A DNA stretch of 47,921 nucleotides, taken from IMG/VR virus record IMGVR_UViG_3300045988_102864. One strand, 5' to 3'. Position numbers and translations under genes: made by a program. The stretch is from a virus. How positions within the stretch are numbered: the first letter of the stretch is position 1; the number at the start of each line of letters is the position of its first letter. This document shows positions 1 through 43,939 of the stretch, piece by piece. The notes under the pieces are model-generated. The model worked only from the letters and a program-made list of their open reading frames with translations. It ran no database searches and had not been told where the DNA came from.

Positions 1-99
1 ATGGCTTGATTACGGCAAATACAGCGGTTTCGGTCAGTGGCGAAATTCCGGAAAAGGCAGATATACCTGGGAAGAAATCGTATAAAGTCCAAAAAAAAG
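1..99. repeat. Terminal direct repeat, identical to 47823..47921 (circular closure or terminal redundancy)
   Basis: Base-by-base comparison: atggcttgattacggc...ccaaaaaaaag occurs at both ends. Positions 1..85 duplicate the 3' end of CDS 47305..47907. Confidence 0.95.
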
Positions 100-1150: not shown

Positions 1151-1187
1151 AAAAAGAGCAAGGAATCACTTCCCTGCTCTTTTTTTA
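1151..1187. terminator. Bidirectional intrinsic terminator
   Basis: A-run, about 10-bp stem GAGCAAGGAA/UUCCCUGCUC (one mismatch), T-run. It lies between convergent genes. It is near-identical to the hairpin at 13686..13718. Confidence 0.65.
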
Positions 1188-1604
1188 TTTGCTTTGTTCT
1201 TTTGGTTCGCCACCGCCTGCTTGTTTTCGCCATTTCGCGACGTTCAAAGCGAATTTCTCTATCACTTTCCAGTCTTCCGGCTCAAGCTCGGCAAGTGCCA
1301 TCACAAATTGCTTCACAAAAGATTCATCGGATTCATTCACTAATTTTCCGAACGCATCTATCAATGCATCTTCTGTGTCTTTCGGGCGGAACATATCTCC
1401 CTTGCCCGTTCTAAGCCAATTTTCGGCAACACCGTATGTATTGCATATATCGGAGATAACTCTATCAGTGACACCTATTCTGCCTATCTCTATATTGCCT
1501 AAGTTCGAACGCGATATGTTAATTCCCGCCGCGAACTCTTCCTGTGTTATCTTGCAGGCTTTTCTGACAGCGCGGATTCTTTTACTGATTTTATCTTCGC
1601 TCAT
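1185..1604 (-). CDS. XRE/cI-type HTH repressor
   Basis: N-terminal HTH (ITQEEFAAGINISRSNLGNIEIGR), 139 aa, divergent from the early operon across a dual-promoter region. Confidence 0.8.
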   Translation of the reverse strand: MSEDKISKRIRAVRKACKITQEEFAAGINISRSNLGNIEIGRIGVTDRVISDICNTYGVAENWLRTGKGDMFRPKDTEDALIDAFGKLVNESDESFVKQFVMALAELEPEDWKVIEKFALNVAKWRKQAGGGEPKEQSK

Positions 1605-2274: not shown

Positions 2275-2449
2275 TGTGACCAATCTGCACACCCAGCCGC
2301 CGGAAGTAAAGCCACGCAATGGACGCAAAGTCGCATCACATAACAAAATAGACCCGACAGATACAGCCGTCCGCCTGACCTGCACCGCAAAGAAATGCAC
2401 AGGCGCAGCTGCTTGCTTTAAGCGAAGAAAAAAGGAGTTGGCAGAATGA
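2255..2449 (+). CDS. Hypothetical basic protein
   Basis: 64-aa ORF that fills the gap and overlaps both neighbours by a few nt. No motif. Confidence 0.35.
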   Translation: MPRYLYDVTNLHTQPPEVKPRNGRKVASHNKIDPTDTAVRLTCTAKKCTGAAACFKRRKKELAE

Positions 2450-3264
2450 AACGGAAAGAATCACTGAAAGAGTATCATTCCCAGCACTGTCTTTCCAAGA
2501 CAAAACTGTTCCGTATCATCGACAAATGCCCCGAATGGTTTAAGTATTGCGAAGACCATCCCGAAGCAGCAGAGGAATCTAAATCACTTCTGTTCGGCGC
2601 GGCACTTCACAAGTACGTGCTTGAACCGGAATCATTTTTCGACGAATACGCAGTAATGCCGAATGTTGACAGGCGTACAAAGGCAGGAAAAGAAGAGTAT
2701 ATCGCATTTTCCGAAAGCATAGGTACAAGAGATGTGATATCAAACGATGATTTTACCGTTATACAGCAGATGAACTCAAAAATCAAATCATTCCCCCTCG
2801 CGAAATACCTGCTGACAGGTGAAATCGAAACCTCGTACTACTATAAAGACAGTCTGACAGGAATAGACCTGCAAGCAAGACCCGACGTTTACAAGCGTGT
2901 CGGAGAGCGCGGATTGATAGTCGACCTCAAAACGTGTGCAAGCGCAGACAGCGATACTTTCCGCAAATCCGCAGTAAACTACGGCTACGATATGCAAGCC
3001 GCGATGTTTATCGACGCTTGTACCGCCGAATACGGTATCCCGTGCGACTTTGTGTTCGTTGCAGTCGAAAAAACACCGCCATATATGGTAAATGTGCTGT
3101 CGGCTGACGAACTGCTTATCAAGTACGGCAGAGACAGGCTGAGAGAAGCCATAGGAATTTACAAAGAATGCTCCGAATCCGGCAACTGGTACGGTTACAA
3201 CGGATTCTCAGGCATAATAAACAACCTCGGATTACCATCATATTTAGCAAAGGAGATTCAGTAA
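2446..3264 (+). CDS. PD-(D/E)XK family exonuclease (recombination exonuclease)
   Basis: ARPD...IVDLKT... (D, then D-x-K) followed by YGYDMQAAMF. It lies directly upstream of an SSAP-like gene. Confidence 0.8.
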   Translation: MKRKESLKEYHSQHCLSKTKLFRIIDKCPEWFKYCEDHPEAAEESKSLLFGAALHKYVLEPESFFDEYAVMPNVDRRTKAGKEEYIAFSESIGTRDVISNDDFTVIQQMNSKIKSFPLAKYLLTGEIETSYYYKDSLTGIDLQARPDVYKRVGERGLIVDLKTCASADSDTFRKSAVNYGYDMQAAMFIDACTAEYGIPCDFVFVAVEKTPPYMVNVLSADELLIKYGRDRLREAIGIYKECSESGNWYGYNGFSGIINNLGLPSYLAKEIQ

Positions 3265-4784: not shown

Positions 4785-5022
4785 GATAATCGACGAGAGA
4801 CAGCTTGTAGATGAGCTGCACAGAAACTGGAAAACACGCGGCTACACCGACGGCGGAATGGCGGAATTGCTCGAAATAACACCGAAAACAATTCATTACA
4901 AAATCAGCGGAAACTTCCCTCACAACGGCTACAAGGCGCATTTTAAGGTCAACGAGATATTACAGTTAATACACTATCTCGGCTTCAAACTCTATCTTGT
5001 GAGAGAGGATGACGCGAAATGA
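4768..5022 (+). CDS. HTH protein
   Basis: ORF 4702..5022 trimmed to ATG 4768 (SD AAAGGAGG). MAELLEITPKTIHYKISG is HTH-like. Confidence 0.5.
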   Translation: MKKATEIIDERQLVDELHRNWKTRGYTDGGMAELLEITPKTIHYKISGNFPHNGYKAHFKVNEILQLIHYLGFKLYLVREDDAK

Positions 5023-5948
5023 ACATCCCCGACAGATGGATAGCTAAGCTCGATATGCTCCCTCCGAATGACTTCAAAACACTTGTGATGGCGATTCTGA
5101 GAGACGAGAGCGAACCCGAGATAACAGGAAAATTACAGTATATTGCGACCGACATTTATGTCGACCGCAATAGAGCGGAGTATCACAAGCTGATAGTCCG
5201 AAAGGCAAGAAACAAAGTCACAGAGACGTCTCTGTTAAATCACAGTGTTAGTCACGGTGACGGTCACGGTGATAGTCACGGTGATAGTCACGGTGACGGT
5301 CACGGTGACGGTCACGGTGATAGTCACGGTGATAGTCACGGTGACGGTCACGGTGATAGTCACAAACAAGTCACAGTGATTCAAGAAGAGAAAAGAGAAG
5401 CGTCTCCCCCTTGTTCCCCCTCTTCTTTTCCCCCACACCCCCTTATTAACTCCCCCTATAATCCCCCTCTTGAAGAGAAAAGAGAAGAAGCACTAACGGG
5501 CGTGTGCGCGGGCGCGTGTGAGGACGAGCAGATTTCCTTTGAAGGCTTTGAACCCCTTGAACCGCCAGAATCCGAGGTTAAGCACAGAAAACCGACGATA
5601 GCGGAGCGTTTTGAAGCCTTATGGGCAGAATACCCCAAGAAAAACGGCAAAAAGAACGCTTTTGAGAGCTATCAGAGAGCTATAGCAGCCGGAGTAACCG
5701 ACGAGACTATAGCCGACGGTATCAGGCGGTACAAGGACTACATAGCCGCAAAGCGCACGAGCGAACAGTACATACTTGCAGGCTCGACATACTTCTACCA
5801 GTGGCGTTGGCAGGACATATACGACACCGTATCAGTCGCACCAACTTGCAGCGAAAAATCGGGAGGTGATGAATTTCTAAATTACCTCAACGAGGAACTT
5901 GAAAAAGAAAAAGCGAAAAGAGAAAGCCGATGGACAGAACAGACGTAA
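5019..5948 (+). CDS. Replication-organiser/DnaD-like protein with a His-Gly-Asp repeat and a Pro-rich linker
   Basis: The C-terminal FEALWAEYPKKNGKKNAFESYQRAI...YFYQWRWQD resembles phage replication-organiser C-domains as I remember them. The central part is low complexity. Confidence 0.55.
   Translation: MNIPDRWIAKLDMLPPNDFKTLVMAILRDESEPEITGKLQYIATDIYVDRNRAEYHKLIVRKARNKVTETSLLNHSVSHGDGHGDSHGDSHGDGHGDGHGDSHGDSHGDGHGDSHKQVTVIQEEKREASPPCSPSSFPPHPLINSPYNPPLEEKREEALTGVCAGACEDEQISFEGFEPLEPPESEVKHRKPTIAERFEALWAEYPKKNGKKNAFESYQRAIAAGVTDETIADGIRRYKDYIAAKRTSEQYILAGSTYFYQWRWQDIYDTVSVAPTCSEKSGGDEFLNYLNEELEKEKAKRESRWTEQT
5253..5363 (+). repeat. In-frame 12-bp minisatellite (cacggtgacggt / cacggtgatagt) encoding (HGD[GS])x9
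   Basis: Read directly. Higher-order 48-bp unit G-S-S-G x2 plus one more unit. Confidence 0.95.
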
Positions 5949-6538
5949 TATCAACGCTGAAAATTCTCAAAGTCGCATATCCCGGATTTTACGCGAAGAT
6001 GAGCAAAACGGACGCAGAGGACACCGTATCTGTGTGGTGCGATATGTTTTGCGAAGAGGACGTGAACGTTGTCAAAATCGCTCTGTACAAGGTCATTGAA
6101 GAACACACAGGCTTTCCTCCGACGATAGCGGACATCAAGACGAAGATACGAGAAATGCGCAGAGCGGCGACGGGAGAAAAGACGGACGAAGAACTGTGGT
6201 CTCAGCTGAAAGCGGCAGTGTCGAACGGCTACTACGGAGCAAAAGAGGAATTCGCGAAACTTCCTCCCGAACTGCAAAGATACCTCGGAACGCCTAACAC
6301 TCTCCGCGAACTTTCACAGGTTGACACCGATACGTTTAACACCGTCACTCACGGGCAGTTCCTCAAACAGATAGGCATCATCCGCGACAGAGTGAGATTT
6401 GACAACGAAACGCCGCCCGAAATCAAGGCACTGCTCGGCACAGTAACAAAGCCGATACCCGCAAACAACAGACTTACCGAAAACGAATTTAACGAGAGCA
6501 GAAACAGACTGCTCAACACATTACAAAACAATCCGTAG
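5930..6538 (+). CDS. Helicase-loader-like protein (SPP1 G39P-like, tentative)
   Basis: LKILKVAYPGFYAKMSKTDAEDTVSVWCDMFCEEDVNVVKIALYKVIEEHTGFPPTIADI matches my recollection of G39P-type loaders. It follows the organiser-like gene. Confidence 0.45.
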   Translation: MDRTDVISTLKILKVAYPGFYAKMSKTDAEDTVSVWCDMFCEEDVNVVKIALYKVIEEHTGFPPTIADIKTKIREMRRAATGEKTDEELWSQLKAAVSNGYYGAKEEFAKLPPELQRYLGTPNTLRELSQVDTDTFNTVTHGQFLKQIGIIRDRVRFDNETPPEIKALLGTVTKPIPANNRLTENEFNESRNRLLNTLQNNP

Positions 6539-9904: not shown

Positions 9905-10291
9905 ATGAAAGACCCGACAAAAATAAATGTCCTTGTGGCTTGCGAGGAATCGCAGCGCGTGTGCATGGCGTTCCGCGAGAGAGGATTTAACGCTTTCTCC
10001 TGCGATATACAGGAGTGCTCCGGCGGACATCCCGAATATCACATACTCGGAGACGCGGTGAAAGCACTTGACGCGGGAGAAATAACCACGATGGACGGTA
10101 GGACACACAGCATACCGAAGTGGGATTTGCTTATAGCTCACCCGCCGTGTACATATCTAAGCAATGTCGCGACACGTGCATTTTCGCTCAGATGTACCCC
10201 TCCCGAAAAAGTTGTGCGGCGATGGGAAGACAAATCTTGTCACGCTCTGCATAAGCTGCCATCTCAAAAGGCACGGAAAGGTAAAACATGA
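9905..10291 (+). pseudogene. Truncated phage-type C5-methyltransferase-like gene
   Basis: INVLVACEESQRV...LLIAHPPCTYLSN matches the N-half of small phage MTase-like proteins. After about residue 95 the frame reads through unrelated sequence. Confidence 0.5.
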
Positions 10292-10295
10292 CTGA
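10164..10295 (+). pseudogene. HNH endonuclease remnant (43 codons, +1 frame relative to 9905..10291)
   Basis: Hand translation MSRHVHFRSDVPLPKKLCGDGKTNLVTLCISCHLKRHGKVKHD contains H-x-H...N-L-x-x-L-C-x-x-C-H-x-x-x-H. The N-terminal CxxC part is missing. Confidence 0.45.
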
Positions 10296-10602
10296 ATACG
10301 AAAGATTACAAGAGCTGCTGTATAGGTTGCGCGAGATAATGCCGGAGATAGGAGAGAATCCCGTTGCCGACGAGATGTACAACATGGTGTTTGAGAATAC
10401 CGAGAACACGGACGAAGATGTTGTAGAAGTAGTGAGGTGCAAAGACTGCATCCATCACAGGCAGCTTGACCGCAAAGACCCCTACGAGGACAGCTTCATC
10501 GAGGGATGCCTTTGGTGCATGCTGGGACGCGGAGACGGTGTTATGCCAGAACAGTTCTGCGACGACGGCGCGAAAATGTTCGAAAGCGAGGATGAAGAAT
10601 GA
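10288..10602 (+). CDS. Hypothetical acidic Cys-containing protein
   Basis: 104-aa ORF, translationally coupled to its neighbours. Confidence 0.55.
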   Translation: MTEYERLQELLYRLREIMPEIGENPVADEMYNMVFENTENTDEDVVEVVRCKDCIHHRQLDRKDPYEDSFIEGCLWCMLGRGDGVMPEQFCDDGAKMFESEDEE

Positions 10603-10822: not shown

Positions 10823-11131
10823 ATGGGAGAAAAGAAAGAATACAAAATCGGAGTGCCGATATACGAAACGGAAATATACAGCGAAGAGAGCCGGAGCTGG
10901 CCGCGTCCGAGAAGAATGACACGAAAAAGATTCATTAAATTGCTAATGGGGAAGTTTCATTTTTCTCGAAATCGGGCAAGATACATTGCAAAGAAGATGT
11001 TATTATGGCAGGAAATAGGAACCACAAACAACGTCACCTTGAAAAAGCTGGGAGATAAGACACGGGAAATGCCACCATCATATTCCGATTTTTGGCTATC
11101 ATATCCTATACCTGGGGGAAAAAAGGAGTAG
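10823..11131 (+). CDS. Hypothetical protein
   Basis: 102-aa ORF with SD TAGGAGG upstream. Confidence 0.5.
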   Translation: MGEKKEYKIGVPIYETEIYSEESRSWPRPRRMTRKRFIKLLMGKFHFSRNRARYIAKKMLLWQEIGTTNNVTLKKLGDKTREMPPSYSDFWLSYPIPGGKKE

Positions 11132-11136
11132 ATTAA

Positions 11137-11421
11137 ATGAGAACAACATCAGATGAGCTTCTTAAAAAGTGTGGACTATTGTTCATTACGTCGACAGAAG
11201 TGGAAGAACTTGCGGGAGAATCCCCATGCCTGAACTGCGCAAGAGAAGACTGCAACCTCAGCGGATTTTTCGAACTTGCAAGACGGAGTTTGTACATCCA
11301 CGCGATGCTTGTACGCAAAGAAGAAGAATACAACTTACTGAATGTGTTCGCCGAAGCACTTCCCTTTTTGTTGATTGACTGCAAAGAAAGGATTGCAAAG
11401 AACGAATGCACTGCAAAATAA
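11137..11421 (+). CDS. Hypothetical protein
   Basis: 94-aa ORF. Confidence 0.45.
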   Translation: MRTTSDELLKKCGLLFITSTEVEELAGESPCLNCAREDCNLSGFFELARRSLYIHAMLVRKEEEYNLLNVFAEALPFLLIDCKERIAKNECTAK

Positions 11422-11858
11422 GCGACTGCTTCAACTGCCCCTATCCCGACTGCATCAACGATACCTTTACCTCGCCGAGGGAGTTTACGCCGGAGCAGAA
11501 GAAACGGCAGTGCGAGCTGAAGAAGAAAATGCTTGCGCGGCGAAGAGAGAACGGAGTGTGTATCTACTGCGGAAAGAAGCCCGCGGACAAAGGTTATAAA
11601 TCCTGCATGGAGTGTCGGATAGAACGAACGAAGAAGAACCGCGAATACAGCCGCAAAACGGAAAGATTTACTCCGCGTGAACTGATGGACGGCGTAAAAC
11701 TGTGCAAGCTGTGTGGGAAAAGACCGCCTGTTGACGGAAGAACGATTTGTGAAGAGTGTTTTAAAAAATGCCTTGGCAATCTTAATCACGCCGACAGCAA
11801 AGAGCAGCCGAACAACGGCTTTAGAGCATCAATAGAAGCGTACTGGAGGGAGAGATAA
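11406..11858 (+). CDS. Multi-zinc-ribbon protein
   Basis: Repeated CxxC pairs (CIYCG...CMEC, CKLCG...CEEC). Confidence 0.55.
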   Translation: MHCKISDCFNCPYPDCINDTFTSPREFTPEQKKRQCELKKKMLARRRENGVCIYCGKKPADKGYKSCMECRIERTKKNREYSRKTERFTPRELMDGVKLCKLCGKRPPVDGRTICEECFKKCLGNLNHADSKEQPNNGFRASIEAYWRER

Positions 11859-14299: not shown

Positions 14300-14347
14300 A
14301 CACAGCAAATTCATAAACAAAGGAGGAACATGACAGAAGTCACGAAA

Positions 14348-14414
14348 GGAAACGGAGGGAGTTGAACCCTCGCAAGCAGTCTGTTGACCGCCAAACGACC
14401 GATTCGCCGTTCCC
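14348..14414 (-). ncRNA. tRNA-like element 1 (non-canonical, 67 nt)
   Basis: Acceptor GGGAACG/CGUUUCC (7 bp, one G.U). D-arm CGAA-UCGGUCG-UUUG. T-arm GAGGG-UUCAACU-CCCUC. The anticodon arm GCGGU-CAACAG-ACUGC has a 6-nt loop. No encoded CCA. Confidence 0.4.
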
Positions 14415-14484
14415 ATGTGTGACAGCTTTAAAAGCCGCCACGGGTTGAAACAACACGACCGAAAGGACGAACGACCATGTTTGC

Positions 14485-14552
14485 CGCGCTTTGCGGAGTT
14501 GAACCGCAGTTGTACACATTACGGTATCGTCTGCCGTTGAACGTATAGCGCG
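14485..14552 (-). ncRNA. tRNA-like element 2 (non-canonical, 68 nt)
   Basis: Acceptor CGCGCU/AGCGCG. U8-A9. D-arm CGUU-CAACGGCA-GACG (GG present). T-arm UGCGG-UUCAACU-CCGCA. The anticodon region is 3-4 nt too short and forms only a 3-bp stem. Confidence 0.4.
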
Positions 14553-14716
14553 ATATCCGAGCAGCCCGTTGGCGGTTCATCACTCCCGCTTTTTGCTCGG
14601 ATATTTTAAAAGAAAGGAGTTTCAATATGAAGAACAACCAGAGTTCATTGTTCCACAACAATATTATAGCACGTTTAAACGCGTTTGTCAACATTTCTGT
14701 CAACGTTTAGTAACGT

Positions 14717-15334
14717 TTAATGTTTACTAAACAGCTTTGCAAACCAATTCAACTTACGCTTGTTACCTTGTTCAACATCGGATTCGTTTGTTGTCTCAAC
14801 GTTATTCTCGTCTGCGGCAGTGCTTTTGCCAACTGTGGCGTTCTGGGAGACGTTCTGAGGTGCATTAACAAACTTGTCAGATTCACTGACCGCATGGAGC
14901 GTTTGCGCCTGCACAGCGGTTTGTAGCGCGTTGTGGGCGAGTTCGGCAAACTTGCTGGCGTAGTCTGCAATCTGCCTATCACGTTCGTCAAGCATTTCCG
15001 TCTTCTGTTTCAACTCGTCTGCCTGTCTGTCAATTACGTTTCTGAGAGCTTCTACAGTCTCCTGTAGGCTCTTTATTGTTTCTGCGTTCAAACACTCGTG
15101 TCCTTCGTTTTCTTCGCTCTCACAAACCTGTGGTGCGTCACACGCGGTTTCCGCAACTGCTTCTTGTTTTTTTGAGTTGCTATATAGTTTCAATGCATCC
15201 TCGGAAATTCTTTTTACTCCGTCCTCGCTTGTCACTATATATTCTTCAAGACCGTTCCGCTTAATTCTTTGATATACCGATTGACTTGTCACTCCGGCTC
15301 TGTCGGCGAATTCGGCTATTGTGAGGTATTTCAT
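14717..15334 (-). CDS. Replication-associated HTH protein (MerR/excisionase-type N-terminal HTH plus coiled coil)
   Basis: MKYLTIAEFADRAGVTSQSVYQRIKRNG. ATGA overlap with the rep gene. Confidence 0.6.
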   Translation of the reverse strand: MKYLTIAEFADRAGVTSQSVYQRIKRNGLEEYIVTSEDGVKRISEDALKLYSNSKKQEAVAETACDAPQVCESEENEGHECLNAETIKSLQETVEALRNVIDRQADELKQKTEMLDERDRQIADYASKFAELAHNALQTAVQAQTLHAVSESDKFVNAPQNVSQNATVGKSTAADENNVETTNESDVEQGNKRKLNWFAKLFSKH

Positions 15335-16023
15335 GGATTACTCCTTGTTTTTGTGATTGAGAATTTAATGTGAGTTATACTTCTTCCCGTCCGCGTCGGC
15401 TCATAGGCTACACGCAAATCACTAACGGCGTTAATTTCGTCAACGGCAGTGTCGATTACGCGCTTGCGAAAATCAATAAAATCCGAATAACCGCCTATTT
15501 GCATAAGCGTTTTCAAATTTTCAACAGAAACGGTGTACTCGCCTATATTGGCATAGCTTTTAAGTATCTCGTACAAACGTATAGTGTGTTTCGATTCCAT
15601 GTTTAACACGGTTTGAAGCTGATATGCCGTATACGATTCTTTGAGTTCGAGCAAATAAGGTGCTAACCGCTTGTCAAGCTGAATCCTAACCCGCGATTCA
15701 TTTTCGTATATTTCCGCACCCGAAATCCATGCGCATAGCTTCCTTACATTTCCGTCCACTATCCAGAATGACTTGTCGCGTATGGATTGCAGCGTTTCAC
15801 GGAGATTCTTGTAATTCTTGCCGTTTTGAGTAATTCCAAGTGCTTCACACATATCTTGCAGATTGAAATCATACTCATAAAGTTCTTTATCATCTGGTTT
15901 TACCTTGCTTATCGTATACAATATGACTTTTTGCTCCTGTGTTGTCATTCCGTATCTTGACTTTTGAATTAGTTCGTTCTTTTTGACAACCAAATTATTA
16001 ATTTTTTTATCGCTATTTTCCAT
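15331..16023 (-). CDS. Rep_3-family (RepB-like) plasmid replication initiator
   Basis: NELIQKSRYGMTTQEQKVILYTISKV...HTIRLYEILKSY... is the typical winged-helix Rep_3 pattern. ORF 15331..16038 trimmed to the second ATG (SD GAAGGGAG). An iteron array lies immediately upstream. Confidence 0.85.
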   Translation of the reverse strand: MENSDKKINNLVVKKNELIQKSRYGMTTQEQKVILYTISKVKPDDKELYEYDFNLQDMCEALGITQNGKNYKNLRETLQSIRDKSFWIVDGNVRKLCAWISGAEIYENESRVRIQLDKRLAPYLLELKESYTAYQLQTVLNMESKHTIRLYEILKSYANIGEYTVSVENLKTLMQIGGYSDFIDFRKRVIDTAVDEINAVSDLRVAYEPTRTGRSITHIKFSITKTRSNP

Positions 16024-16037
16024 GGTTACTCCCTTCA

Positions 16038-16083
16038 TGTTGAAAACTCTGTGTAAAACCTTGTTGAAAACATTGTTGAAAAC
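16038..16083. repeat. Three exact copies of tgttgaaaac (a fourth lies at 16358..16367) flanking the iteron array
   Basis: 16038..16047, 16062..16071 and 16074..16083. Confidence 0.8.
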
Positions 16084-16124
16084 TGCAAAAGAACAATTTT
16101 CCCGTGTGTTTTCTCGGTTTTACA

Positions 16125-16257
16125 GTTACCAAATGTCCTGTTTATCGTTACCAAATGTCCTGTTTATCGTTACCAAGTGTCCTGTTTTACAGTTACCAAA
16201 TGTCCTGCTATCCGTTACCAAATGTCCTGTTTATCGTTACCAAATGTCCTGTTTAAC
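16125..16257. repeat. Iteron array: six tandem 22-23-bp repeats GTTACCAAATGTCCTGTTTATC (plasmid origin)
   Basis: Copies start at 16125, 16147, 16169, 16192, 16214 and 16236. They are contiguous with no spacers. Confidence 0.9.
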
Positions 16258-16330
16258 ATTTCCCTACTTTAATTAAATAAAAATAGTAAAATAATAAGTA
16301 TCTCTTATAAAAGTAATAAGTATGTTGTTT
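16258..16330. other. AT-rich stretch next to the iterons (candidate DNA-unwinding element)
   Basis: atttccctactttaattaaataaaaatagtaaaataataagtatctcttataaaagtaataagtat, with aataagtat x2. Confidence 0.5.
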
Positions 16331-16808
16331 CACGAACTAAAGCGCATAAATTTTGCCTGTTGAAAACTCAAAAGCGAATACACGGTTAGTAAGCAGGAAG
16401 AGAAAATTTTTACCATATTGTAATTTTAAGCTATCTGTCATGCCTTGTCAAGATGTTTTCTAAATATTGACAAACGTCTAAATAAACATTTTTCAACGCA
16501 TTGGTAAACTGATTTACAAACATATTGACAGGGAAGTGCATTTTAGGCAAATGCCGAAAATGATTTGATAAACAGCATTTGTAAACTTAAAGAAAGATTG
16601 ACAAACCTATTAACAAACCACACTAAATATGAAGGAAACGAAATTAATGTAACTCAATCACGTTCCGCAACCAACTGTATAGAATCGCCCATTCTTTACA
16701 GTTTTTTCTTGCTATTCTTAAGTTCTATTAAAGCACCACTTATAAAGACAAGCGTGTTTATTGCTCATATCTTTAACGATTAAATCAACTTGCAGAAGAT
16801 TAAACAAT

Positions 16809-16841
16809 AAAAGAGGGTAGTTTTACAACTATCCTCTTTTA
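16809..16841. terminator. Bidirectional intrinsic terminator
   Basis: Stem AAGAGGGUAG/CUAUCCUCUU with flanking A- and T-runs, directly after the stop of CDS 16870..17478. Confidence 0.6.
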
Positions 16842-16869
16842 AGATTTACTCATGTTTACACAACATTTG

Positions 16870-17478
16870 TCAATGTTTCTCAACTATGCATTCATAGTAT
16901 TTTGCGAGTTTATCTTCTCCCGCATCCTCATCGTCAAGGAAAGCGTGAGCCATTGCCGCATAGAAATCAACAGAGTTGAGATTAAACTCCTTGCCTATTT
17001 TGTAGTAATCGGAGTACATCATGTTAATTGCAGCGTAAAATTCGGCAGGGTCGCAGTCATAGCCGTGCTGCCGTCTCACCTGCTCCGTTTGTTCAAAATT
17101 CCAGTGTCTTCCGGTTGAGCCGTCGGCGTTTTTCATTTTCTCCGTCCACTCGTCCGCGTCCTCACGGGTAAATTTGTCGTGCTTTTTCCCACGTTTGCCG
17201 TAGCTCTCACGCTCACGCCCGTCATAATCGCGGCGGTCTCTCATGTCGTACTCGCCATAGTAGTCACGCTTGCCGTGGCCGTCGTACTCGTCATAGTCAG
17301 GTTGACGGCGGCGGTCATAATCGGGGTATCTGTCCTCGCGTCTATCGTATCTGTCATAATCGCGCGGTCTATGGTCACGGTCATAGTCACGCTCTTGTCT
17401 GTCGTAGCCGCCGTATTCACTGCGCTTGTCCTTGCCGCTTGACATCATGAGCAGCCAGTTAGGATTCATTCTCTTCAT
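16870..17478 (-). CDS. Cargo protein E: Arg/Asp/Tyr-rich disordered N-half plus a conserved-looking C-domain
   Basis: N-half is DYDR-type low complexity. The C-half (DEWTEKMKNADGSTGRHWNFEQTEQ...MMYSDYYKIG...) looks globular. Confidence 0.65.
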   Translation of the reverse strand: MKRMNPNWLLMMSSGKDKRSEYGGYDRQERDYDRDHRPRDYDRYDRREDRYPDYDRRRQPDYDEYDGHGKRDYYGEYDMRDRRDYDGRERESYGKRGKKHDKFTREDADEWTEKMKNADGSTGRHWNFEQTEQVRRQHGYDCDPAEFYAAINMMYSDYYKIGKEFNLNSVDFYAAMAHAFLDDEDAGEDKLAKYYECIVEKH

Positions 17479-17885
17479 ACTGTCTCACCTCCCGTTGTGG
17501 TGGTCGTCGGTGCTGTGCCGTTGATTGAGCGCAGGTCGTTGTTAGGCGCACAAGCCGGTCTGCCGAGCAGTCTAAAGCTGCCGCCCGTCGGTGTGGTGAC
17601 TACAACCGCGCTGTATCTCGTCCGTGCCCTTATCGAGCAAGCGGTCAACTGAGCGCAACAACGGTTAGTCAGCGGATATAACGTAGTGCCGTCTCCGATT
17701 GTGACGTACACGGGAGCGTTGATTGTCGTCGCTGTCGGTATTGCCTGAGCGACTACGATACAGTATTTTTCTCTCGCGTTATACGCGCCCGCCGGGAGAT
17801 TGATTATCAGATTGCCGCCGGTAAAGGACACCGACTGCGACAGGGTAAAGCGCGGACAAAGTCTGCATACATTAGTACAAGCCAT
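17475..17885 (-). CDS. Cargo protein D: Cys-rich beta-type protein with a Thr-rich tail
   Basis: MACTNVCRLC N-terminus, further Cys (CIVV, RCCAQLTAC, PAC), tail TAPTTTTTGG. Confidence 0.6.
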   Translation of the reverse strand: MACTNVCRLCPRFTLSQSVSFTGGNLIINLPAGAYNAREKYCIVVAQAIPTATTINAPVYVTIGDGTTLYPLTNRCCAQLTACSIRARTRYSAVVVTTPTGGSFRLLGRPACAPNNDLRSINGTAPTTTTTGGETV

Positions 17886-17967
17886 TTTTTATACCTCCAA
17901 AAAATCAAAAGGGAAGCGGTACGCCGCTCCCCCGAAATCGGTCACGGCTCAAAGCCGGAGTTGTGAA

Positions 17968-18719
17968 TCAATAGTTGCCGCAACCGGAACAGCCGGAATT
18001 ACATCCGTAGTTGCCGTACTGCCAAGGCGCGGGAACGTTGAATGCGGGCACGGGAGCCTTACAGCCGAGCTGACTTACAAGATACTGATTCTGCGCCTGC
18101 TGTGATGCGGCAAGCTCAAGTCCAAATATTCTCTGTGTCTGAGCCGCAATCTGCGCGTCCTTCGTCGCTATCTCCTGCGCCGTCAGTCTGTCGGATATGC
18201 CGCGGAATCCGCTATTCATCGCGTCGATTATATCGCGGGTGTTGTTAGCGGCGTTAGTGTTAATCGCGCAGGTGTCGGTTGCCATGCGGTAGCCAACGTC
18301 GGCAAATCCGCGCTCCATCGCTCTGCCGTTTTCGCAACAGCACTGCTGGAGCTGTGTCGCAAGAGCCGCCTGTCCTCTCTCAACACCGTTAAATCCCTGC
18401 ATCATAGCCACATTTGTGTCGTTAAATCCCTGCTGTGTCTGATAGCCGAGGTTGCAAATCGCGTTGCCGACGCCGTGGAAGCCGTTGAGCATTGACGAAT
18501 TCATATCGTAAAATCCGTCGCAAAGTCCGTTTTGTACGCCGCGGACGGAATCCTCCAGTCCGTTGAATCCAAACTCGCTCTGTAGGTCTGCGCGGGTAAG
18601 TCCGCCCTGAGTGCCTGCCGCCATTACGTAGGGGAGTGCGCCCATGCCCGAGGAATCGCCGACGTTTCCGCCGAAGCCGTTACGTCCCCAGCCAAAGATG
18701 ATGGCGAGAATGATTACTG
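17968..18719 (-). CDS. Cargo protein C, exon 2 (Gly/Asn/Gln-rich, (N/Q)GF repeats, Cys-rich C-terminus)
   Basis: This is the frame of ORF 17968..18744, whose only start is a TTG with no SD. It is joined to exon 1 by the group I intron. Eight (N/Q/R)GF repeats. The protein ends GCNSGCSGCGNY. Confidence 0.75.
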
Positions 18720-19131
18720 CCAATTTGTTCACGTCAAAGCGCAACCCCTGACGCAGTCTTGCCGTTATAGGTAGACTTCTGACGTTTTCACGCCAGTGCA
18801 GACTATATCTTCACCTGTATTTCTACAGGGCAACATTTTTCTTCCGTCATTAGCTTACGGTTTTACTCTCCGTCAAGGAGATAGTCGTTGAGGGTCTTCC
18901 ATGCCTTAAAAAGGTTTAGGACTGTCCCTGCTAAACACCCATTGTAGAAGCACTTAGGACTGACACCGTGCCAGTTTTTTTATTTCGCCATATGCCATCT
19001 CACTGTTTTTTCTGCTTTCGCGCCGTTCAGTTTGCCGTTTCCGACTGCTGTTTAGGTAGTGAGCTTTAGGGATTAAAAGCATTTAACGTTGAGTTTACAC
19101 CGATTACTCGATATAAAGGGTAGCCGTAGTT
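18720..19131 (-). mobile_element. Group I self-splicing intron (IA-like, T4 td-like core), no internal ORF
   Basis: R-like UCAACGACUAU (18890..18881) and S-like AAGAUAUAGUC (18811..18801) form P7. P3 is CAACGUU/AAUGUUG. P7.1, P7.2 and P8 hairpins are present. P9 is CUGGCGU-GAAA-ACGUCAG. The 3' end is UGAACAAAUUGG. P1 is GAUUAU/GUAAUC with a U.G pair at the 5' splice site. Boundaries are accurate to a few nt. Confidence 0.8.
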
Positions 19132-20925: not shown

Positions 20926-22131
20926 TTAAAACGCGATAATGTTGTTAACCGCACGACTGCCGCCCGTTGACCGTCTCTTGATTCCCTCAACACGGATATA
21001 CGAGCCGCCGCCGTCAAGAGCAATAACGTCTTCAAAACCCTCGCCCTGTATCTTTCGCCAAACCTCGCCGGATTTGATGTAGTTTGCCGAGGTGGTTTTG
21101 AGCGTGAGCACCCATATCTCGCCGTTACGGATTCCGAGCATGTTTCTCGATGTGCCGTAGGTGGTGGAGCTGTCCCAGCCCTCCGCGCCCACGTAGCTCA
21201 TGTCGACAGGCTTTTTGTCGGACACAACAGGCACTCCGCTGACGGCGTACTTGATTCCCGACGGGATTTTGTCAACACGCTCAATTGTCGGCTTGCCGGA
21301 GTACGGCACGAGCAGTGTTGATACCTTTTTACCAGCAAACTGCTTTGTCGCGTTGTCGGCGATACTGTACACAAGGTGGTTTCCGTAGACGTGTTCAAAA
21401 AGATTTTCTTTCGCCGCCGCCGGAATCTCCTTGATATCACAGGCAAGGTTAGCGACAGGGAGCGTGTACACCTCGCCGTCTTCCGAGCAGTAATTTGCGA
21501 AGAAGCCGCCGTTAATATATCTCTTCACGCCACCCTTGCGCTTGTCCGCGTCGTGATAGAGGATTGCAAAATTCTTCGCGCGGGTGTACGTAATTCCGTC
21601 CTTGTCGTAGCTGTCCTTGACGTTGGTATTGCCCTTTTTGCCGGACACATCGAGACTGATGTTTGTGTTCACGTTTTTTTCTCCTTTTGATATAGATTTG
21701 ATGTCGTACTGTCCCCACTCGTTAGGTATGCCGAGATATGGAGTAGGGTCTACGGATTCACCGTTTTTGCGGACCTCAAAGTGACAGTGACTACCGAAGG
21801 AGTAGCCGGTGTTGCCCTCAATTCCGACCACGTCTCCCGCCTTAACCTTTTGACCGACTTTAACTTTTCGCGCCGCCATGTGGCACATGAAAATCTTAAG
21901 TCCGTCAGCCGTGTCAATGCGGATGTAGTTGCCCCACTGCCATGTGAGATTAGACTTGTCCGTGATGATTGTCGACGAGCCGATAACTCCGTCACAAGGT
22001 GCAACAAGCGTTTTGTCCGTGCCGCTGAGGTCTACGCCCTTGTGGTAGTCGCGCTGTCCGTTGAGCGTACGCCAGCCAAAGTGTGACGTGAGCGTGACCT
22101 TGCCGGATTGATAAGGGAGATTCATTTTCAC
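20926..22131 (-). CDS. Endolysin: M23 peptidase plus a C-terminal phosphodiester-glycosidase-like (NAGPA-like) domain
   Basis: HxxxD (YHKGVDL) and HxH (SHCHFE). The C-terminal ...IALDGGGSYIRVEG... resembles NAGPA/DUF2233. Confidence 0.8.
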   Translation of the reverse strand: MKMNLPYQSGKVTLTSHFGWRTLNGQRDYHKGVDLSGTDKTLVAPCDGVIGSSTIITDKSNLTWQWGNYIRIDTADGLKIFMCHMAARKVKVGQKVKAGDVVGIEGNTGYSFGSHCHFEVRKNGESVDPTPYLGIPNEWGQYDIKSISKGEKNVNTNISLDVSGKKGNTNVKDSYDKDGITYTRAKNFAILYHDADKRKGGVKRYINGGFFANYCSEDGEVYTLPVANLACDIKEIPAAAKENLFEHVYGNHLVYSIADNATKQFAGKKVSTLLVPYSGKPTIERVDKIPSGIKYAVSGVPVVSDKKPVDMSYVGAEGWDSSTTYGTSRNMLGIRNGEIWVLTLKTTSANYIKSGEVWRKIQGEGFEDVIALDGGGSYIRVEGIKRRSTGGSRAVNNIIAF

Positions 22132-29384: not shown

Positions 29385-32357
29385 TTAACCACCCGTAACC
29401 TGTTCAACCATCTTCTGGGAGCGTTTTACCGCGCGTCCCAAAGCAACAGACGGAGAAATCGAAAGTTCCTTGTCAGCAATCTTTTGTAACAGTCTGTTTT
29501 GTTCTCTGAGAAGTTTGTTCTGCTCTGCGGTATCCTTGTCCGAGCCTGAACTGTTCGCGCGGAGTACGCCGTTCATAGCGTTTGTGACACCTGCCTGAAT
29601 GCCCGCTATAATCTGACCGTTGTTCGCAACAGCGTTTCTGCCGCCTATAGTTCCTACCAGTTCGGGTCCTGCTTCACGCGCGACGAATAACTGTCCCATA
29701 GTCGGGAAACCGCCGTTAGCAAACTGATTATCGAGAGAACCGAAAAGCAAATCGTCAACAATGGAATCCGTCTTAGTCTTGCGAATCTTTTCTCTCGCTT
29801 CCTCAACCTTGCTGAAATCGGCTTTTACATCAATAGTGACACCTGCGGTCATACCGTCAAGGTCTTTGACTTTTCCGCTGAAATAATCGACTTTATCCGC
29901 CGCGTCTTGGAGCGCAGTTTCCGCATTATTAACCGCAAGTGATGTATCTTTAACGGCTCCTTCCGCGTCTGCGAGGTCGTCCATCCATGATATAAATTGA
30001 GTTGACAGTTCACCACCTAAAAGGCTTGCAAGTTCTGCGTTTTTTACGCTTAACCAGTGTATGCTGTCGGTTGTTATATCACTCGCGCTTGTAATGTCCT
30101 GCAACGCTCTTGTGTTAAGTCCGAGAGAATCAAGGAAGCCCTTGTTGTCGCTTTTGATAAGGTCATATATCTTCTGTTGTGCTTCTTTCTGTCTCTCCGT
30201 AGCTTCTATATTATCTTGCTTTAGTTCGATAAGTTTATATTCAGCGTCCGATTGCAGGATGTATGCGTTTTTGATTGATTCATTGTACGCTTCAAGCAGA
30301 AGTTCCTTTTCTCGCGACTTGATGAGCTTGTTAAGTTCGTCGCGCGTCTGAACGATAGAACCCTTGTCGTTAACTTCAATTTCTATAATCCCCATTGAAT
30401 TGATTTCGTTTACGAGAGTTTTCAAAAGTTCAGCTTCCGCTGTGGTTCTTTGTTCCTCCGGAATGTCGTTGAGTTTGAACGCTTCATTTATAAGCCTTTT
30501 AAGCGTAGCCATTTTTAGTTCAACCTCTTTTACCGGAGCATCGAGCTTGTCTACGCGCAATTGTAATTCAGCCGCTATTTCAAGGTCTATCTTTGCCTTG
30601 TCTGCAATTTTCTGGATTTTTGCGTGAAGTTCCTGCGTGTCGAGAAATTTTTGCTTCTTCTCATCAAGCCCAACCTTGACAGCCGCAATAGCCGTAGCAA
30701 TTGTAGCCAGTATGCCTATCGCAAGTCCAGCCTTGCCCCATTTAACGGTAAGTCCCGCTATAGTAGCAAGCGAACCAAGAACCGCTTTAAGTATATTTTC
30801 TTTCGTCACTTCGCCTGAAGCAAGATTCTTTATACCGTCAAACTCAAACGCAAGTCCCGCAAAAGATATAGCAAGCGTAGCAGAGGTTCCAAACCCTCCA
30901 CCGAACAGCTCCGATACCTTTATGCCGAGAAGAGCCGCCCCAATTTCTGTTGCATACTCTTTGATTTCCGCCCATGTGTCATGAAGTCTGTCCGACCACT
31001 CGGTAACGCTTGACGAGATGTTCTCCATTGATACCTCTTCAAACATTCCGCTGTAGTCGGGTGTGGTCTTGCCGGAAGAACTGCCCGTGCTTGATATAAC
31101 GTTCAGCTCGTCAAATCCCGCAAGGAGCTGTTTTTGAGCCACCGCCGAATCCTTAGCCGCTTCCGCATATTCTTTCTGCTGGCGAATAGCCTTAGTCCAC
31201 GAAGAAGCCCCAGTCATTTTCGCGGCAAGCTGATTCAGCCAGTTTACACCCTCGACTATTCTATCAATGAGCGAATCGAATACGGGAATGAGCGCATTGA
31301 GTATCGGAGCTGTCATAGCACCTACAGAGTTTCGGAAATATTGCAGTGAAGTGGCGGCGCTGTCCATACTGCTTGCAAAGTCAGTCCCGACCGCCTTACT
31401 GTATTGGTAAAGGTTGTTTACACCCTCGCTGAATGCCTTGGCAATCTGTTTCAAGAACTCATTCACGGTACGATAACGAAGGATTCTTTCAAGTGAACCC
31501 GCAACCTTGCCGATAGTCTCGCCGAAAACCGAGTTCTTGAATCTCTTGCTCATCTGTTTGCCGAGGTCTTTTATGGACTTCGCAGCACCTTTTGCTTTGG
31601 CTTTGAGTTCGCCAAATTTCGCCGTTATCGAAGCAAGCGGTTTTTCTACGGTGTCGAGTTGTTCCGCGTTTTTGATAAGGCTTTCGAGTATGTCGCTTTG
31701 ACTTGTCTCTTTGCCCGCCGACTTGAGTATGTCGTTAAACTGCTTATTCTTCGCCGCAGTCGGTTTGGCAAACATTTCATCGAAGTTTTGTTTCCATACA
31801 TATTTTCGGACGTAGTCGCTTACCTCTTTTTGCTGTCTACGGATTGAAGCCCAATCAATTGTGTTGTCTATCTTTTCTTCGCCACTATCGGCAATACCGT
31901 ATTTCTTGTTATAAGCAGCTTCCGCTTTTTTCGATATAGCAAGGTCTCGTGCCAATTGCGCCTTCATACGCTGAGTTTCCGCAATTTCGTCCGCGGCTCT
32001 GTCTATTTCCGCTTTCATTTCCGCCATGTAACTATCATCATCGGCTTTTTTCAAAGTTATCTTTTGCGCCTTATCCATGCCTTTCATGACGGCAGCGGAG
32101 TTTTTCACAACGTCCTTTAAAGCGCGGTATTTCTTTGTCGCATTTTCCGTTTCTGTAGCAAGCGTTTTTAGAGAAGAAGCTGTTTCCTTTATGTCTTTGC
32201 CGCCTAAAAAATTGCTTACCTGCGGCATTGACTTGAAATCTCTCATAAGTTCTCTGAGAGGTTCGAGCGTTTTCACAAGATTTTTCAGCGCGCTTTCCGC
32301 TTTCTTTGTCTCGGCAGTGACTACTATTTGCAGATTGTCTATTGTTCCGTCAGCCAT
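29385..32357 (-). CDS. Tape measure protein
   Basis: ORF 29385..32378 trimmed to ATG 32357 (SD GAAAGGAGAA). About 990 aa, helical/coiled coil with central hydrophobic Gly/Ala segments. It follows the chaperone pair. Confidence 0.85.
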   Translation of the reverse strand: MADGTIDNLQIVVTAETKKAESALKNLVKTLEPLRELMRDFKSMPQVSNFLGGKDIKETASSLKTLATETENATKKYRALKDVVKNSAAVMKGMDKAQKITLKKADDDSYMAEMKAEIDRAADEIAETQRMKAQLARDLAISKKAEAAYNKKYGIADSGEEKIDNTIDWASIRRQQKEVSDYVRKYVWKQNFDEMFAKPTAAKNKQFNDILKSAGKETSQSDILESLIKNAEQLDTVEKPLASITAKFGELKAKAKGAAKSIKDLGKQMSKRFKNSVFGETIGKVAGSLERILRYRTVNEFLKQIAKAFSEGVNNLYQYSKAVGTDFASSMDSAATSLQYFRNSVGAMTAPILNALIPVFDSLIDRIVEGVNWLNQLAAKMTGASSWTKAIRQQKEYAEAAKDSAVAQKQLLAGFDELNVISSTGSSSGKTTPDYSGMFEEVSMENISSSVTEWSDRLHDTWAEIKEYATEIGAALLGIKVSELFGGGFGTSATLAISFAGLAFEFDGIKNLASGEVTKENILKAVLGSLATIAGLTVKWGKAGLAIGILATIATAIAAVKVGLDEKKQKFLDTQELHAKIQKIADKAKIDLEIAAELQLRVDKLDAPVKEVELKMATLKRLINEAFKLNDIPEEQRTTAEAELLKTLVNEINSMGIIEIEVNDKGSIVQTRDELNKLIKSREKELLLEAYNESIKNAYILQSDAEYKLIELKQDNIEATERQKEAQQKIYDLIKSDNKGFLDSLGLNTRALQDITSASDITTDSIHWLSVKNAELASLLGGELSTQFISWMDDLADAEGAVKDTSLAVNNAETALQDAADKVDYFSGKVKDLDGMTAGVTIDVKADFSKVEEAREKIRKTKTDSIVDDLLFGSLDNQFANGGFPTMGQLFVAREAGPELVGTIGGRNAVANNGQIIAGIQAGVTNAMNGVLRANSSGSDKDTAEQNKLLREQNRLLQKIADKELSISPSVALGRAVKRSQKMVEQVTGG

Positions 32358-32823
32358 TGTTTTTGTTCTCCTTTCCACTGAATTTTTGTCGCATAGCGGA
32401 AAGCCACGAGAACGCTTGATTTTGTACTTCCGCTTGTTTTTTAGCTTTTTCCGCTTCTTCCTCGGTTTTTCTCTGCCTTTCGGTTACGGAATACGGCTTT
32501 TCGGGATATTTGCCGGGCTTTGTACCGCGTTTTGCAAAAGCATGAAGAATAGGAGCGAGACAACCTACAGCCTCGTATACATAGATTCCTTGTAACCACG
32601 CCGCATAATTATCTCGCTCCTGTCTGTATTCTTCTGCTTCTCGGTAGTAGCGAAGTTCTGTAAAGTCTCCGTCCCAGTATGTGTCATAGGGAACTCCTAT
32701 AGACATATAGTAGGAGCACAGATTATCCGCATACTCCGCAAACCACGGCTTGTCAACTGTCGGCTCAGCGTCAGTCATGCCCGTTTCGCCGGAAGATGGT
32801 GTTATCCCTTCACCGTCTTCCAC
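32350..32823 (-). CDS. Tail assembly chaperone, -1 frame extension (gpT-like part of a G-T fusion)
   Basis: Open in the -1 frame relative to 32802..33152 from the slippery site onward. Its only own start is a GTG with no SD. Confidence 0.6.
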   Translation of the reverse strand: MEDGEGITPSSGETGMTDAEPTVDKPWFAEYADNLCSYYMSIGVPYDTYWDGDFTELRYYREAEEYRQERDNYAAWLQGIYVYEAVGCLAPILHAFAKRGTKPGKYPEKPYSVTERQRKTEEEAEKAKKQAEVQNQAFSWLSAMRQKFSGKENKNNG

Positions 32824-35234: not shown

Positions 35235-35426
35235 TCATTTCTTTTTGCGTGTGTTAGTTGTTGTCTTCGGTTTTTCTTCCGCTAAAACAGCCTTTTCTTT
35301 TTCTTCGGTTATCACTCCGTGCGCCGAAAGTTCCGCAGTATCGGAGGAAGATATCTCAAACTTTTCTCCCGCATTGTGCCACACACCACGGTAATTAACC
35401 GAATAATTAGGTGTGAGGTAAATCAT
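35235..35426 (-). CDS. Small hypothetical protein after the capsid gene
   Basis: 63-aa ORF with a Lys-rich tail. Confidence 0.4.
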   Translation of the reverse strand: MIYLTPNYSVNYRGVWHNAGEKFEISSSDTAELSAHGVITEEKEKAVLAEEKPKTTTNTRKKK

Positions 35427-39674: not shown

Positions 39675-39712
39675 ACGAATAGCCCCTATCGGCTCTTACT
39701 GCAACCCGATTG

Positions 39713-39895
39713 TTACAGCGTTTTTATAGTGTATTTAGCTTTTCTCGAAGCGGTTATTTCAAGTATAGTGACCTCTTCGCGCGATTTCTTTATTTTAACG
39801 TCATTACCACGCTCTAAAATCTCGTTGATTATAAGAAGCGCATCTTCTTTGACGTACTTGAGACGGTGCGCGTGTTTCTCTTCTTCCATAGCCAC
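39713..39895 (-). CDS. Small protein between TerL and portal
   Basis: 60-aa ORF, tightly packed. Confidence 0.45.
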   Translation of the reverse strand: MAMEEEKHAHRLKYVKEDALLIINEILERGNDVKIKKSREEVTILEITASRKAKYTIKTL

Positions 39896-43651: not shown

Positions 43652-43939
43652 ATGAAATACTACGCACAAATGATAATCTCTACAGCTAGCTACAGTCAAT
43701 ATCTCGACCAGCCCGAGGAAATCGAGAGAAAGGAATTTACTCAACGTAACGTCAACGACTGGTGTGAGAGCTACATTGTTGACAACTACGGCAACGACGC
43801 GGACGAGCAGAGAGAGCACGGCGCGCCCGTCCTCGGAGACCTCGGATTTATCCTCACCGACGAGGACGGGGAAGAAATAGAAACTCTCTATTACCGTGAG
43901 CACCGCGCCGATTATCACGGCTCACACAAAACCCACTAA
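43652..43939 (+). CDS. Small acidic protein
   Basis: 95 aa. D+E clearly exceed K+R by eye. Confidence 0.5.
   Translation: MKYYAQMIISTASYSQYLDQPEEIERKEFTQRNVNDWCESYIVDNYGNDADEQREHGAPVLGDLGFILTDEDGEEIETLYYREHRADYHGSHKTH

Follow-up and report, generated by a model that had tools for sequence, protein, structure and literature searches.

A plasmid-type replicon in a siphovirus genome

The IMG/VR virus record IMGVR_UViG_3300045988_102864 is a DNA of 47,921 nucleotides (the whole of which is referred to as the window), and it carries on its minus strand a replication region of the kind found in Rep_3 plasmids. Read in the direction of the initiator gene rep, this region starts with a terminator-like hairpin and continues with a repeat-rich spacer, a promoter, a distal 9-mer site, an AT-rich stretch, a set of iterons, a 9-mer array, a ribosome-binding site and rep itself, i.e. 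with the canonical origin parts of a Rep_3 replicon in their canonical order. A second gene, for a helix-turn-helix (HTH)/coiled-coil protein, overlaps the end of rep.

The rep gene (15331..16023, minus strand) encodes an initiator of the Rep_3/RepE type, 230 amino acids in length and composed of WH1 and WH2 domains. The N-terminal WH1 is matched by Pfam Rep3_N (PF01051) over the whole profile (E=3e-35, 122 bits against a cut-off of 22.4), and the C-terminal WH2 by Rep3_C (PF21205; E=1e-18, 67.5 bits against 21.1). Further to that, a profile built from Rep and 13 homologues matches the RepE structures of mini-F (plasmid F), 1rep and 2z9o, over their full length (E~2e-25), as well as the sequences of R6K pi and pPS10 RepA in the PDB, and the NCBIfam RepM family is matched with E=5e-34, below the family cut-off. 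A preliminary description of this DNA, made from the letters alone, had called a Rep_3 initiator at 15331..16023 and proposed a profile search as its check; the two-domain Pfam match and the RepE structures are the outcome of that search. The coordinates are right as well, since the ATG at 16023 has the ribosome-binding site AAGGGAG ahead of it and database homologues with 99% identity are 230 amino acids long; a longer open reading frame (ORF) starting at 16038 was rejected as the rep gene on the same two grounds.

At least 5000 plasmid records in PLSDB match Rep. The closest among the matches listed (39–42% identity, full length) belong to small replicons of the rumen plasmidome (HG796263) and to a 2970-bp plasmid of Butyrivibrio fibrisolvens (NC_011376), i.e. 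to Rep_3 theta plasmids of rumen and gut Clostridia; unlike the window, these are cryptic elements of 3–8 kb with no phage genes. A search of 50,697 phage records gave only 24 matches, all at 31% identity or less, among them KS14, phiSemix9P1 and phiSG1, the last of which is a suspected phage-plasmid (PMC7969092). Judging from these relationships, Rep would bind the iterons and drive autonomous replication together with host DnaA.

Six direct iterons of 22–23 bp lie at 16125..16257 (minus strand), with the core GGACATTTGGTAAC in rep orientation. Tandem Repeats Finder reports a period of 22 with 5.9 copies at 16125..16255, and the 16-nt core GTTACCAAATGTCCTG occurs six times at no more than one mismatch against 0.28 expected, in agreement with the six contiguous iterons first described. 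The same core search found no second, incA-like iteron cluster in the window. The 10-mer TGTTGAAAAC occurs exactly four times in the window and only in the origin region (16038, 16062, 16074 and 16358; 0.26 expected, with 1 of 100 shuffles reaching four copies). Relative to the iterons, three of these copies lie towards rep and the fourth is beyond the AT-rich stretch, so that they do bracket the array, as had been noted. Extending the view to 9-mers, four DnaA-box-like sites with a spacing of 12 bp occupy 16038..16083 (minus strand), after the iterons and ahead of the rep start; in rep orientation, three of them read TTTTCAACA and one reads TTTTACACA. A distal site, GTTTTCAACA, is located at 16358..16367 (minus strand) on the far side of the AT-rich stretch. 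The relaxed DnaA-box consensus is TTWTNCACA; one of the five 9-mers fits it exactly and the other four with one mismatch each.

The AT-rich stretch reported before is present at 16258..16330 (16.4% GC). It contains two A/T-rich repeats spaced by 22 bp as well as the second-lowest-GC 80-nt window of the whole sequence, and is a candidate DNA-unwinding element. Beyond the distal 9-mer site, a sigma-70-type promoter (TTGACA-17-TAAAAT, 11 of 12 matches; 16423..16451, minus strand) reads through the origin to rep, and a repeat search identified a spacer with approximately eight TTGACAAAC-type motifs (reverse complement GTTTGTCAA) at 16440..16620, possibly a protein-binding array. The GTTTGTCAA/TTGACAAAC motif is enriched (43 occurrences against 16 expected) and was considered as an operator common to this spacer and the cI region; its copies largely coincide with extended -35 boxes of consensus promoters, and we make no such claim. 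At the far end of the region, downstream of the last late gene, an inverted repeat with 25-nt arms (80% complementary) is followed by a T-run (16798..16851, minus strand) and likely serves as a terminator that insulates the replicon from late transcription. GC skew was rejected as an independent indicator of the origin, as it tracks the coding strand.

A coupled HTH/coiled-coil gene

The second gene of the cassette (14717..15334, minus strand; 205 amino acids) has its start codon in overlap with the stop codon of rep (ATG and TGA, giving ATGA), and the two genes are therefore probably translationally coupled. The HTH family HTH_17 matches the window protein weakly (E=0.007), and 19 of 19 homologues as well, with a best E=1.9e-5; together with the ATGA overlap this agrees with the coupled HTH gene of the preliminary description. 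In the AlphaFold2 model a winged HTH (residues 1–45) and a 73-residue helix (84–156, pLDDT >95) precede a C-terminal helix (185–203) of low pLDDT. From the model and the homologue alignment, the predicted domain order is as follows: MerR-like winged HTH (conserved in the alignment), variable acidic linker, long coiled coil, disordered stretch, conserved C-terminal amphipathic helix. The helix has a near-invariant motif in the homologue alignment, FAELAxNALQTAxQAQxLHAVSES (x, variable), and the protein ends in a conserved basic/aromatic tail, KRKLNWFAKLF, whose W..LF is kept in all homologues and whose hydrophobic moment is 0.63.

RacA is a chromosome anchor of B. subtilis, and its DNA-binding domain (5i44) is the top Foldseek match of the HTH protein, followed by MerR-type regulators and Xis, with weak E-values (0.014). 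By sequence, a comparison of the protein with the PDB gave noise only and no match to Par or RacA. The predicted domain order is the same as in RacA, RocS and pSK1 Par; the latter two use a C-terminal amphipathic helix, and pSK1 Par is a one-protein plasmid partition system (PMC11500499). Par and RocS have DUF536 in common. DUF536 (PF04394) was absent from the families listed for the window protein and from the 25 most widely matched families of its 19 homologues at E up to 10, which sets the protein apart from Par and RocS, and we rejected membership in that family.

A different kind of relationship is indicated by the NCBIfam model NF038291 (rep_pAB02_ORF2, 'plasmid replication DNA-binding protein'), whose gene comes after RepM in the Rep_3 plasmids of Acinetobacter: the match is below the cut-off (E=6e-4, 20.3 bits against 85) and aligns both proteins over their full lengths. 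Because of this end-to-end match we regard rep and its coupled partner as a two-gene cassette of the plasmid type. In some relatives of Rep (L023, L039), rep is adjoined by a weak homologue of the second gene, and the homologue search otherwise found the HTH protein only in this phage lineage, on contigs of at most 53.6 kb. The preliminary description had left the stability functions of the element unidentified. Its statement stands as far as Par and toxin-antitoxin genes are concerned; it no longer holds entirely, as the coupled HTH/coiled-coil gene is now a candidate, albeit a speculative one, for a replication-associated or segregation/stability factor.

Phage modules and a second replication module

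The first and last 99 bases of the window are identical (47823..47921 is a copy of 1..99), giving a circular assembly path of 47,822 bp and bearing out the circular unit of 47.8 kb proposed earlier. Profile scans with Pfam and PHROG covered essentially all ORFs of at least 100 amino acids plus genuine small genes, and NCBIfam was applied to ten selected proteins. They returned a complete set of virion, packaging and lysis genes, as the preliminary description had it: a P22 gp3-like small terminase (42210..42839), a large terminase (39897..41567), an SPP1-type portal (38151..39674), a major capsid protein (35426..36493) with a MuF-like protein also among the head genes, a tape measure protein (29385..32378), a tail terminator, a major tail protein, a 1372-residue large distal tail protein (DUF6273), a holin and an M23 endolysin (20926..22131). 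From the small terminase and the SPP1-like portal we infer headful packaging of terminally redundant DNA.

A cI-like repressor of the XRE family is encoded at 1185..1604 (minus strand; Pfam HTH_3 E=7e-10, PHROG transcriptional repressor families with E down to 4e-11), divergently from the early operon and with two consensus promoters in between, one for each direction. This fits the cI-like module of the first description, and the repressor would provide control of lysogeny. The early operon encodes a DnaD-like initiator (5019..5948, plus strand; PHROG 270 'replication initiation protein', E=4e-27) and a G39P-like helicase loader (5930..6538, plus strand; Pfam Inhibitor_G39P, E=7e-14), as well as a RecE-like exonuclease (2446..3264), an ERCC4 nuclease, a dUTPase, RusA and a single-stranded DNA-binding protein (SSB). 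As a side note, the DnaD-like initiator contains a tetrapeptide, (S/G)HGD, that is repeated approximately nine times in a run (HGDGHGDSHGDS...), with a proline-rich linker after it. With both a plasmid-type and a phage-type module found, the genome has two replication modules, of which the phage-type one belongs to the early operon and the plasmid-type one, with its own promoter, is placed where the early and late operons converge, between their ends.

The cassette in related phages

The lineage is represented by more than 45 independent metagenome contigs, which originate from different studies and assemblers. An identical Rep is present on at least 22 ENA/Logan contigs and a 98–100% identical one on 14 contigs of IMG/VR, and searching with the HTH protein added 16 more metagenome contigs as well as a sub-lineage of seven contigs in the 50–200-kb class (the two shown are ~53.3 kb long). 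Dozens of gut metagenomes from different cohorts contain the lineage (including a Hadza sample and a contig with the prefix HMPC), and in one sample it was assembled at ~300x coverage. One copy was binned in a metagenome-assembled genome (MAG) labelled uncultured Eubacteriales; no isolate genome carrying the lineage was found, the copies at NCBI being MAG contigs. A megablast of 13.0–17.5 kb against GenBank phages and PLSDB plasmids gave no match, thus indicating that there is no close cultured relative.

The GC content of the replicon region is below that of the genome (39% in rep and 33% in the 16–17 kb region against 46.7% overall), as could be expected if the assembly had fused a phage with a small plasmid into a chimeric contig. 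We give practically no credence to this explanation and rejected it, since the order late genes–Rep–HTH–SSB recurs in the more than 45 independent assemblies.

Among sister phages, which we designate by the identity of their Rep to that of the window (L123, 90%; L001 and L003, 70%; L108, 55%), both the order late genes–Rep–HTH gene–SSB and the layout of the origin are kept. The iteron core is common to the group with 70–100% Rep identity (GGACATTTGGTAAC or GGACATTTTGTAAC) and altered in L108, where GGACGTTTGGTTAT occurs in two copies. In spite of its different iterons, L108 retains the 12-bp-spaced array (AGTTTTCAACAN, 4–5 copies), as does L123; L001 and L003 have DnaA-box-like 9-mers between the iterons and rep without the strict 12-bp array. 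L001, L003 and L108 have exact TTTTCCACA or TTTTACACA boxes at the corresponding places; beyond the AT-rich stretch, at the position equivalent to the distal site of the window, all three carry exact TTTTCCACA boxes. Changed iterons and constant 9-mers are expected if the element's own Rep reads the former and a conserved host protein the latter. The 10-mers of the window are best read as DnaA-box-like sites, i.e. as candidate binding sites of host DnaA. More broadly, an array with a period of around 22 bp (21–24 bp) is found upstream of almost every Rep relative examined in genome and viral contigs, its sequence varying by lineage together with Rep. L001 and L003 also have a TTGACA...TATAAT promoter and a similar terminator at equivalent places, and an 11-nt-period TGTTAAA array occurs in relatives in place of the repeat-rich spacer.

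When L108 (9300..10700) is compared with the window (14717..16900), the identity is 55% for Rep and 67% for the HTH protein against 88–97% for the neighbouring genes. This looks like exchange of the cassette, or like incompatibility-driven divergence that proceeds faster than in the flanks, and would be the pattern expected under plasmid incompatibility. It resembles the replicase variants at one locus that were described for P1-like phage-plasmids (PMC7969092). We also observed that the lineage with 70% Rep identity carries an extra XRE/HTH_3 gene of ~150 amino acids on the opposite strand, adjoining the Rep/HTH cassette (L001 11707..12162, L004 1920..2366), at a place where the window has non-coding sequence only.

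Comparison with known phage-plasmids

P1 is a 94-kb enterobacterial myovirus and phage-plasmid with headful packaging that maintains itself with ParAB/parS, Cre-lox and phd-doc and does not integrate into the chromosome. Its oriR/RepA replicon is similar to the region described here in that the gene for an iteron-binding initiator stands behind iterons, an AT-rich stretch and flanking DnaA boxes (DnaA-like ones in the window). Given the separate phage-type replication module, the layout of the window resembles P1 as a whole, with a distinct lytic replicon and, as the genes suggest, repressor-controlled lysogeny. On the other hand, no equivalents of ParAB/parS, Cre-lox or phd-doc were found in the scans of the window ORFs, and the incA-like second iteron cluster is missing.

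The Burkholderia phage KS14 is P2-like and temperate, has a RepB/Rep_3-type protein (gp37) and no tyrosine integrase, and was shown experimentally to be a plasmid prophage (PMC3091744). Its Rep is a detectable homologue of that of the window; however, the similarity is low and partial (29% identity over 57% of the query), and KS14 is a myovirus of Proteobacteria with a DNA-partitioning gene (gp40). The C. difficile phages phiSemix9P1 and phiCD38-2 are Clostridia phages reported to be extrachromosomal DNA in lysogens (PMC6127314). phiSemix9P1 has a gene annotated 'RepB family protein' that is homologous to the Rep of the window (26.5% identity); its Rep is larger (404 amino acids) and only distantly related, there is no nucleotide similarity to the window, and both C. 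difficile phages carry parA.

A probable plasmid prophage

Taken together, these observations make it probable, in our judgement, that the window represents a complete temperate siphovirus of uncultured gut Clostridia (Eubacteriales) with a plasmid prophage, i.e. a candidate phage-plasmid, in which the Rep_3 cassette would be expressed during lysogeny. The preliminary description had already explained lysogeny by extrachromosomal maintenance. Of the three checks that it named, the Rep_3 search is reported above, and the other two concern integration into the host chromosome. No match to an integrase, recombinase, resolvase or transposase was found in the profile scans of the window ORFs, and none of the more than 45 lineage contigs has a host-phage junction or runs into bacterial DNA. 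Carried as far as sequence allows, none of the three spoke against maintenance outside the chromosome. The near-complete contigs are 47–54.5 kb long, with the marker gene at widely differing offsets, indicative of arbitrary breakpoints.

These results bear directly on cryptic integration, in which the phage would insert by an unrecognised recombinase or by host Xer enzymes and the Rep_3 cassette would be a captured plasmid fragment with no role in maintenance. Many ORFs of the window are without annotation, leaving room for such an enzyme, and a tRNA-like element at 14347..14414 (minus strand; see below) could in principle be an attP core. However, all contigs that cover this element have phage genes on both sides of it, in line with the lack of any extension into host DNA, and the best score for a dif-like Xer site was no better than in shuffled sequence (with the B. 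subtilis and E. coli dif sequences for queries). Moreover, the cassette is kept with intact iterons across lineages whose Reps are only 55–70% identical, and such conservation points to selection. We therefore hold cryptic integration to be quite improbable.

Several points weigh against the phage-plasmid interpretation. The episomal state of the prophage is deduced rather than observed, and the virion DNA of a lytic phage with headful packaging would give circular assemblies of 47–54 kb with arbitrary breaks just as well; extrachromosomal lysogeny is thus a proposal. The repressor has no recognisable cleavage or sensor domain, so that the temperate lifestyle is itself a deduction. The DnaA-box assignment depends on one exact match and four with a mismatch. 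A low-copy plasmid of 48 kb normally needs functions for partition, multimer resolution and addiction, and among the scanned ORFs none is recognisable as part of a partition system, a multimer resolvase or an addiction module: there was no match to ParA, ParM, ParB or TubZ in the Pfam and PHROG scans, and no toxin-antitoxin pair in those or the NCBIfam scans, just as the first description had listed transposases, ParA/ParM and toxin-antitoxin pairs as absent. For large low-copy phage-plasmids, a recognisable partition system is expected (PMC7969092). Finally, Rep_3 homologues occur in two PHROG families, one named 'replication initiation protein' and the other without a function name, and some phages may accordingly use Rep_3 proteins for lytic replication.

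The same PHROG families and the same lack of partition, resolution and addiction genes would suit an alternative in which the Rep_3/iteron unit is an infection-time origin, used for early theta replication by a virulent or pseudolysogenic phage that forms no plasmid prophage. Every lineage contig is phage-sized, as virion DNA would be, and since headful packaging also yields circular assemblies, public assemblies cannot separate this alternative from a plasmid prophage. What makes an infection-time origin rather unlikely, in our opinion, is the arrangement of the genome: the early operon already has an initiator and a helicase loader of its own, the Rep cassette belongs to neither the early nor the late operon and has a separate promoter downstream of a terminator, and a cI-like repressor switch is present. 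Furthermore, the cassette swaps its specificity between near-identical phages, as incompatibility would favour, and the named phages with the nearest phage homologues of Rep include a plasmid prophage by experiment (KS14), one reported as extrachromosomal (phiSemix9P1) and a suspected phage-plasmid (phiSG1) (PMC3091744, PMC6127314, PMC7969092).

If the plasmid-prophage interpretation is correct, the cycle would start with injection of headful-packaged, terminally redundant DNA, which would then circularise. The cI-like repressor would silence the early and late operons, while the Rep_3 cassette would stay on through its promoter (16451..16423) behind the terminator. As in the origins of RepE, pi and P1 RepA, to whose family the initiator belongs, Rep monomers would occupy the six iterons and host DnaA the flanking boxes, the 16%-GC stretch would melt and the host replisome would be loaded. 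Speculatively, the co-translated HTH/coiled-coil protein might serve the same replicon, either as an accessory of replication or copy number or as a one-protein segregation tether. Lytic growth would proceed via the separate DnaD-like initiator and G39P-like loader of the early operon, comparable to the distinct lytic replicon of P1.

A structured stretch downstream of the HTH gene

Next to the replicon, at 14330..14691 (minus strand), is a stretch with signs of RNA structure, which may or may not be part of it. A perfect sigma-70 promoter (TTGACA-17-TATAAT with TG; 14691..14663, minus strand) immediately downstream of the HTH gene is followed by ~330 nt that are free of ORFs, fold with z=-4.1 and include two T-arm-like hairpins (loop TTCAACT). 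A match to the tRNA model at 14347..14414 (minus strand) is below the Rfam threshold (19.6 against 29 bits), and neither the window nor any of 34 related loci contains a tRNA predicted by ARAGORN. Conservation of the stretch is 73–100% across more than 25 related contigs, among them L108 with its 55% identical Rep; covariation is thin, with a compensatory change in 4 of 87 predicted pairs. We regard it as a candidate for a new structured RNA or a degenerate pair of tRNAs. In a separate observation, a related contig (L010) has an rve-family transposase gene inserted at 10839..11756, downstream of the HTH gene and between small ORFs of 38 and 54 amino acids, from which it follows that the ORF-poor region at this place tolerates insertion.

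It may be that Rep_3, a co-translated winged HTH/coiled-coil/amphipathic-helix tether without DUF536 or a ParA/ParM NTPase, and possibly the adjacent tRNA-like structured RNA with its promoter form a three-part maintenance module of a new kind for a phage-plasmid, in which the HTH protein would segregate the 48-kb episome much as RocS, RacA and pSK1 Par do with their DNA. We put this forward as a tentative and, for the present, doubtful idea.

Other features of the genome

Three conserved genes are located between the lysis cassette and the replicon (16870..18744, minus strand) and may be accessory genes expressed in lysogeny. One of them, the last late gene (16870..17478), encodes a DUF7841 protein with a repetitive N-terminus rich in Arg, Asp and Tyr; the others encode a Cys- and Thr-rich protein of 136 amino acids and a Gly/Asn/Cys-rich one of 258 amino acids (PHROG 16490, no known function). 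At 9905..10602 (plus strand), the match of a DNA methyltransferase-like ORF to PHROG 757 is limited to positions 1–95 of the 247 in the profile. A separate ORF (10288..10602) follows in line, and the methyltransferase may thus be split or truncated.

In the packaging region, an RNase H-like ORF (41524..41952, minus strand; PHROG 531, E=2.5e-11) is located directly downstream of the large terminase as reported, with an overlap of ~44 nt with the 3' end of the terminase gene. Two Rfam motifs were found elsewhere. The gut-2 RNA motif at 39675..39722 (minus strand) scores 48.9 bits against a gathering score of 39.8; it begins one base past the low-coordinate end of the portal ORF range, as reported (38151..39674), and overlaps the 3' end of a small ORF (39713..39895). 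A type-P5 twister ribozyme at 43939..43998 (plus strand) is a borderline match (38.3 against 37.6 bits) in the spacer just upstream of the ORF 44032..44832, close to where the gene orientation changes from leftward to rightward.

Implications

There are well-documented phage-plasmids from enterobacteria, Bacillus, Clostridioides and mycobacteria, and to our knowledge very few records of them from the uncultured Clostridia that predominate in the human gut. The lifestyle itself is known, and several known examples carry Rep_3-type genes; what appears to be new is an uncultured and apparently prevalent lineage of gut Clostridia phages without a nucleotide match among deposited phages and plasmids. 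Its points of interest are that it lacks a recognisable partition system, that the coupled protein resembles RacA and RocS, and that the replicon cassette evolves fast. With this fast turnover of Rep/iteron specificity between phages that are nearly identical otherwise, the lineage lends itself to a natural test of evolution driven by incompatibility. If the prophage is indeed episomal, the lineage would constitute a prevalent, multicopy means by which phages and plasmids exchange genes in gut Clostridia, and its natural 2.2-kb replicon could seed shuttle vectors for these hard-to-engineer bacteria.

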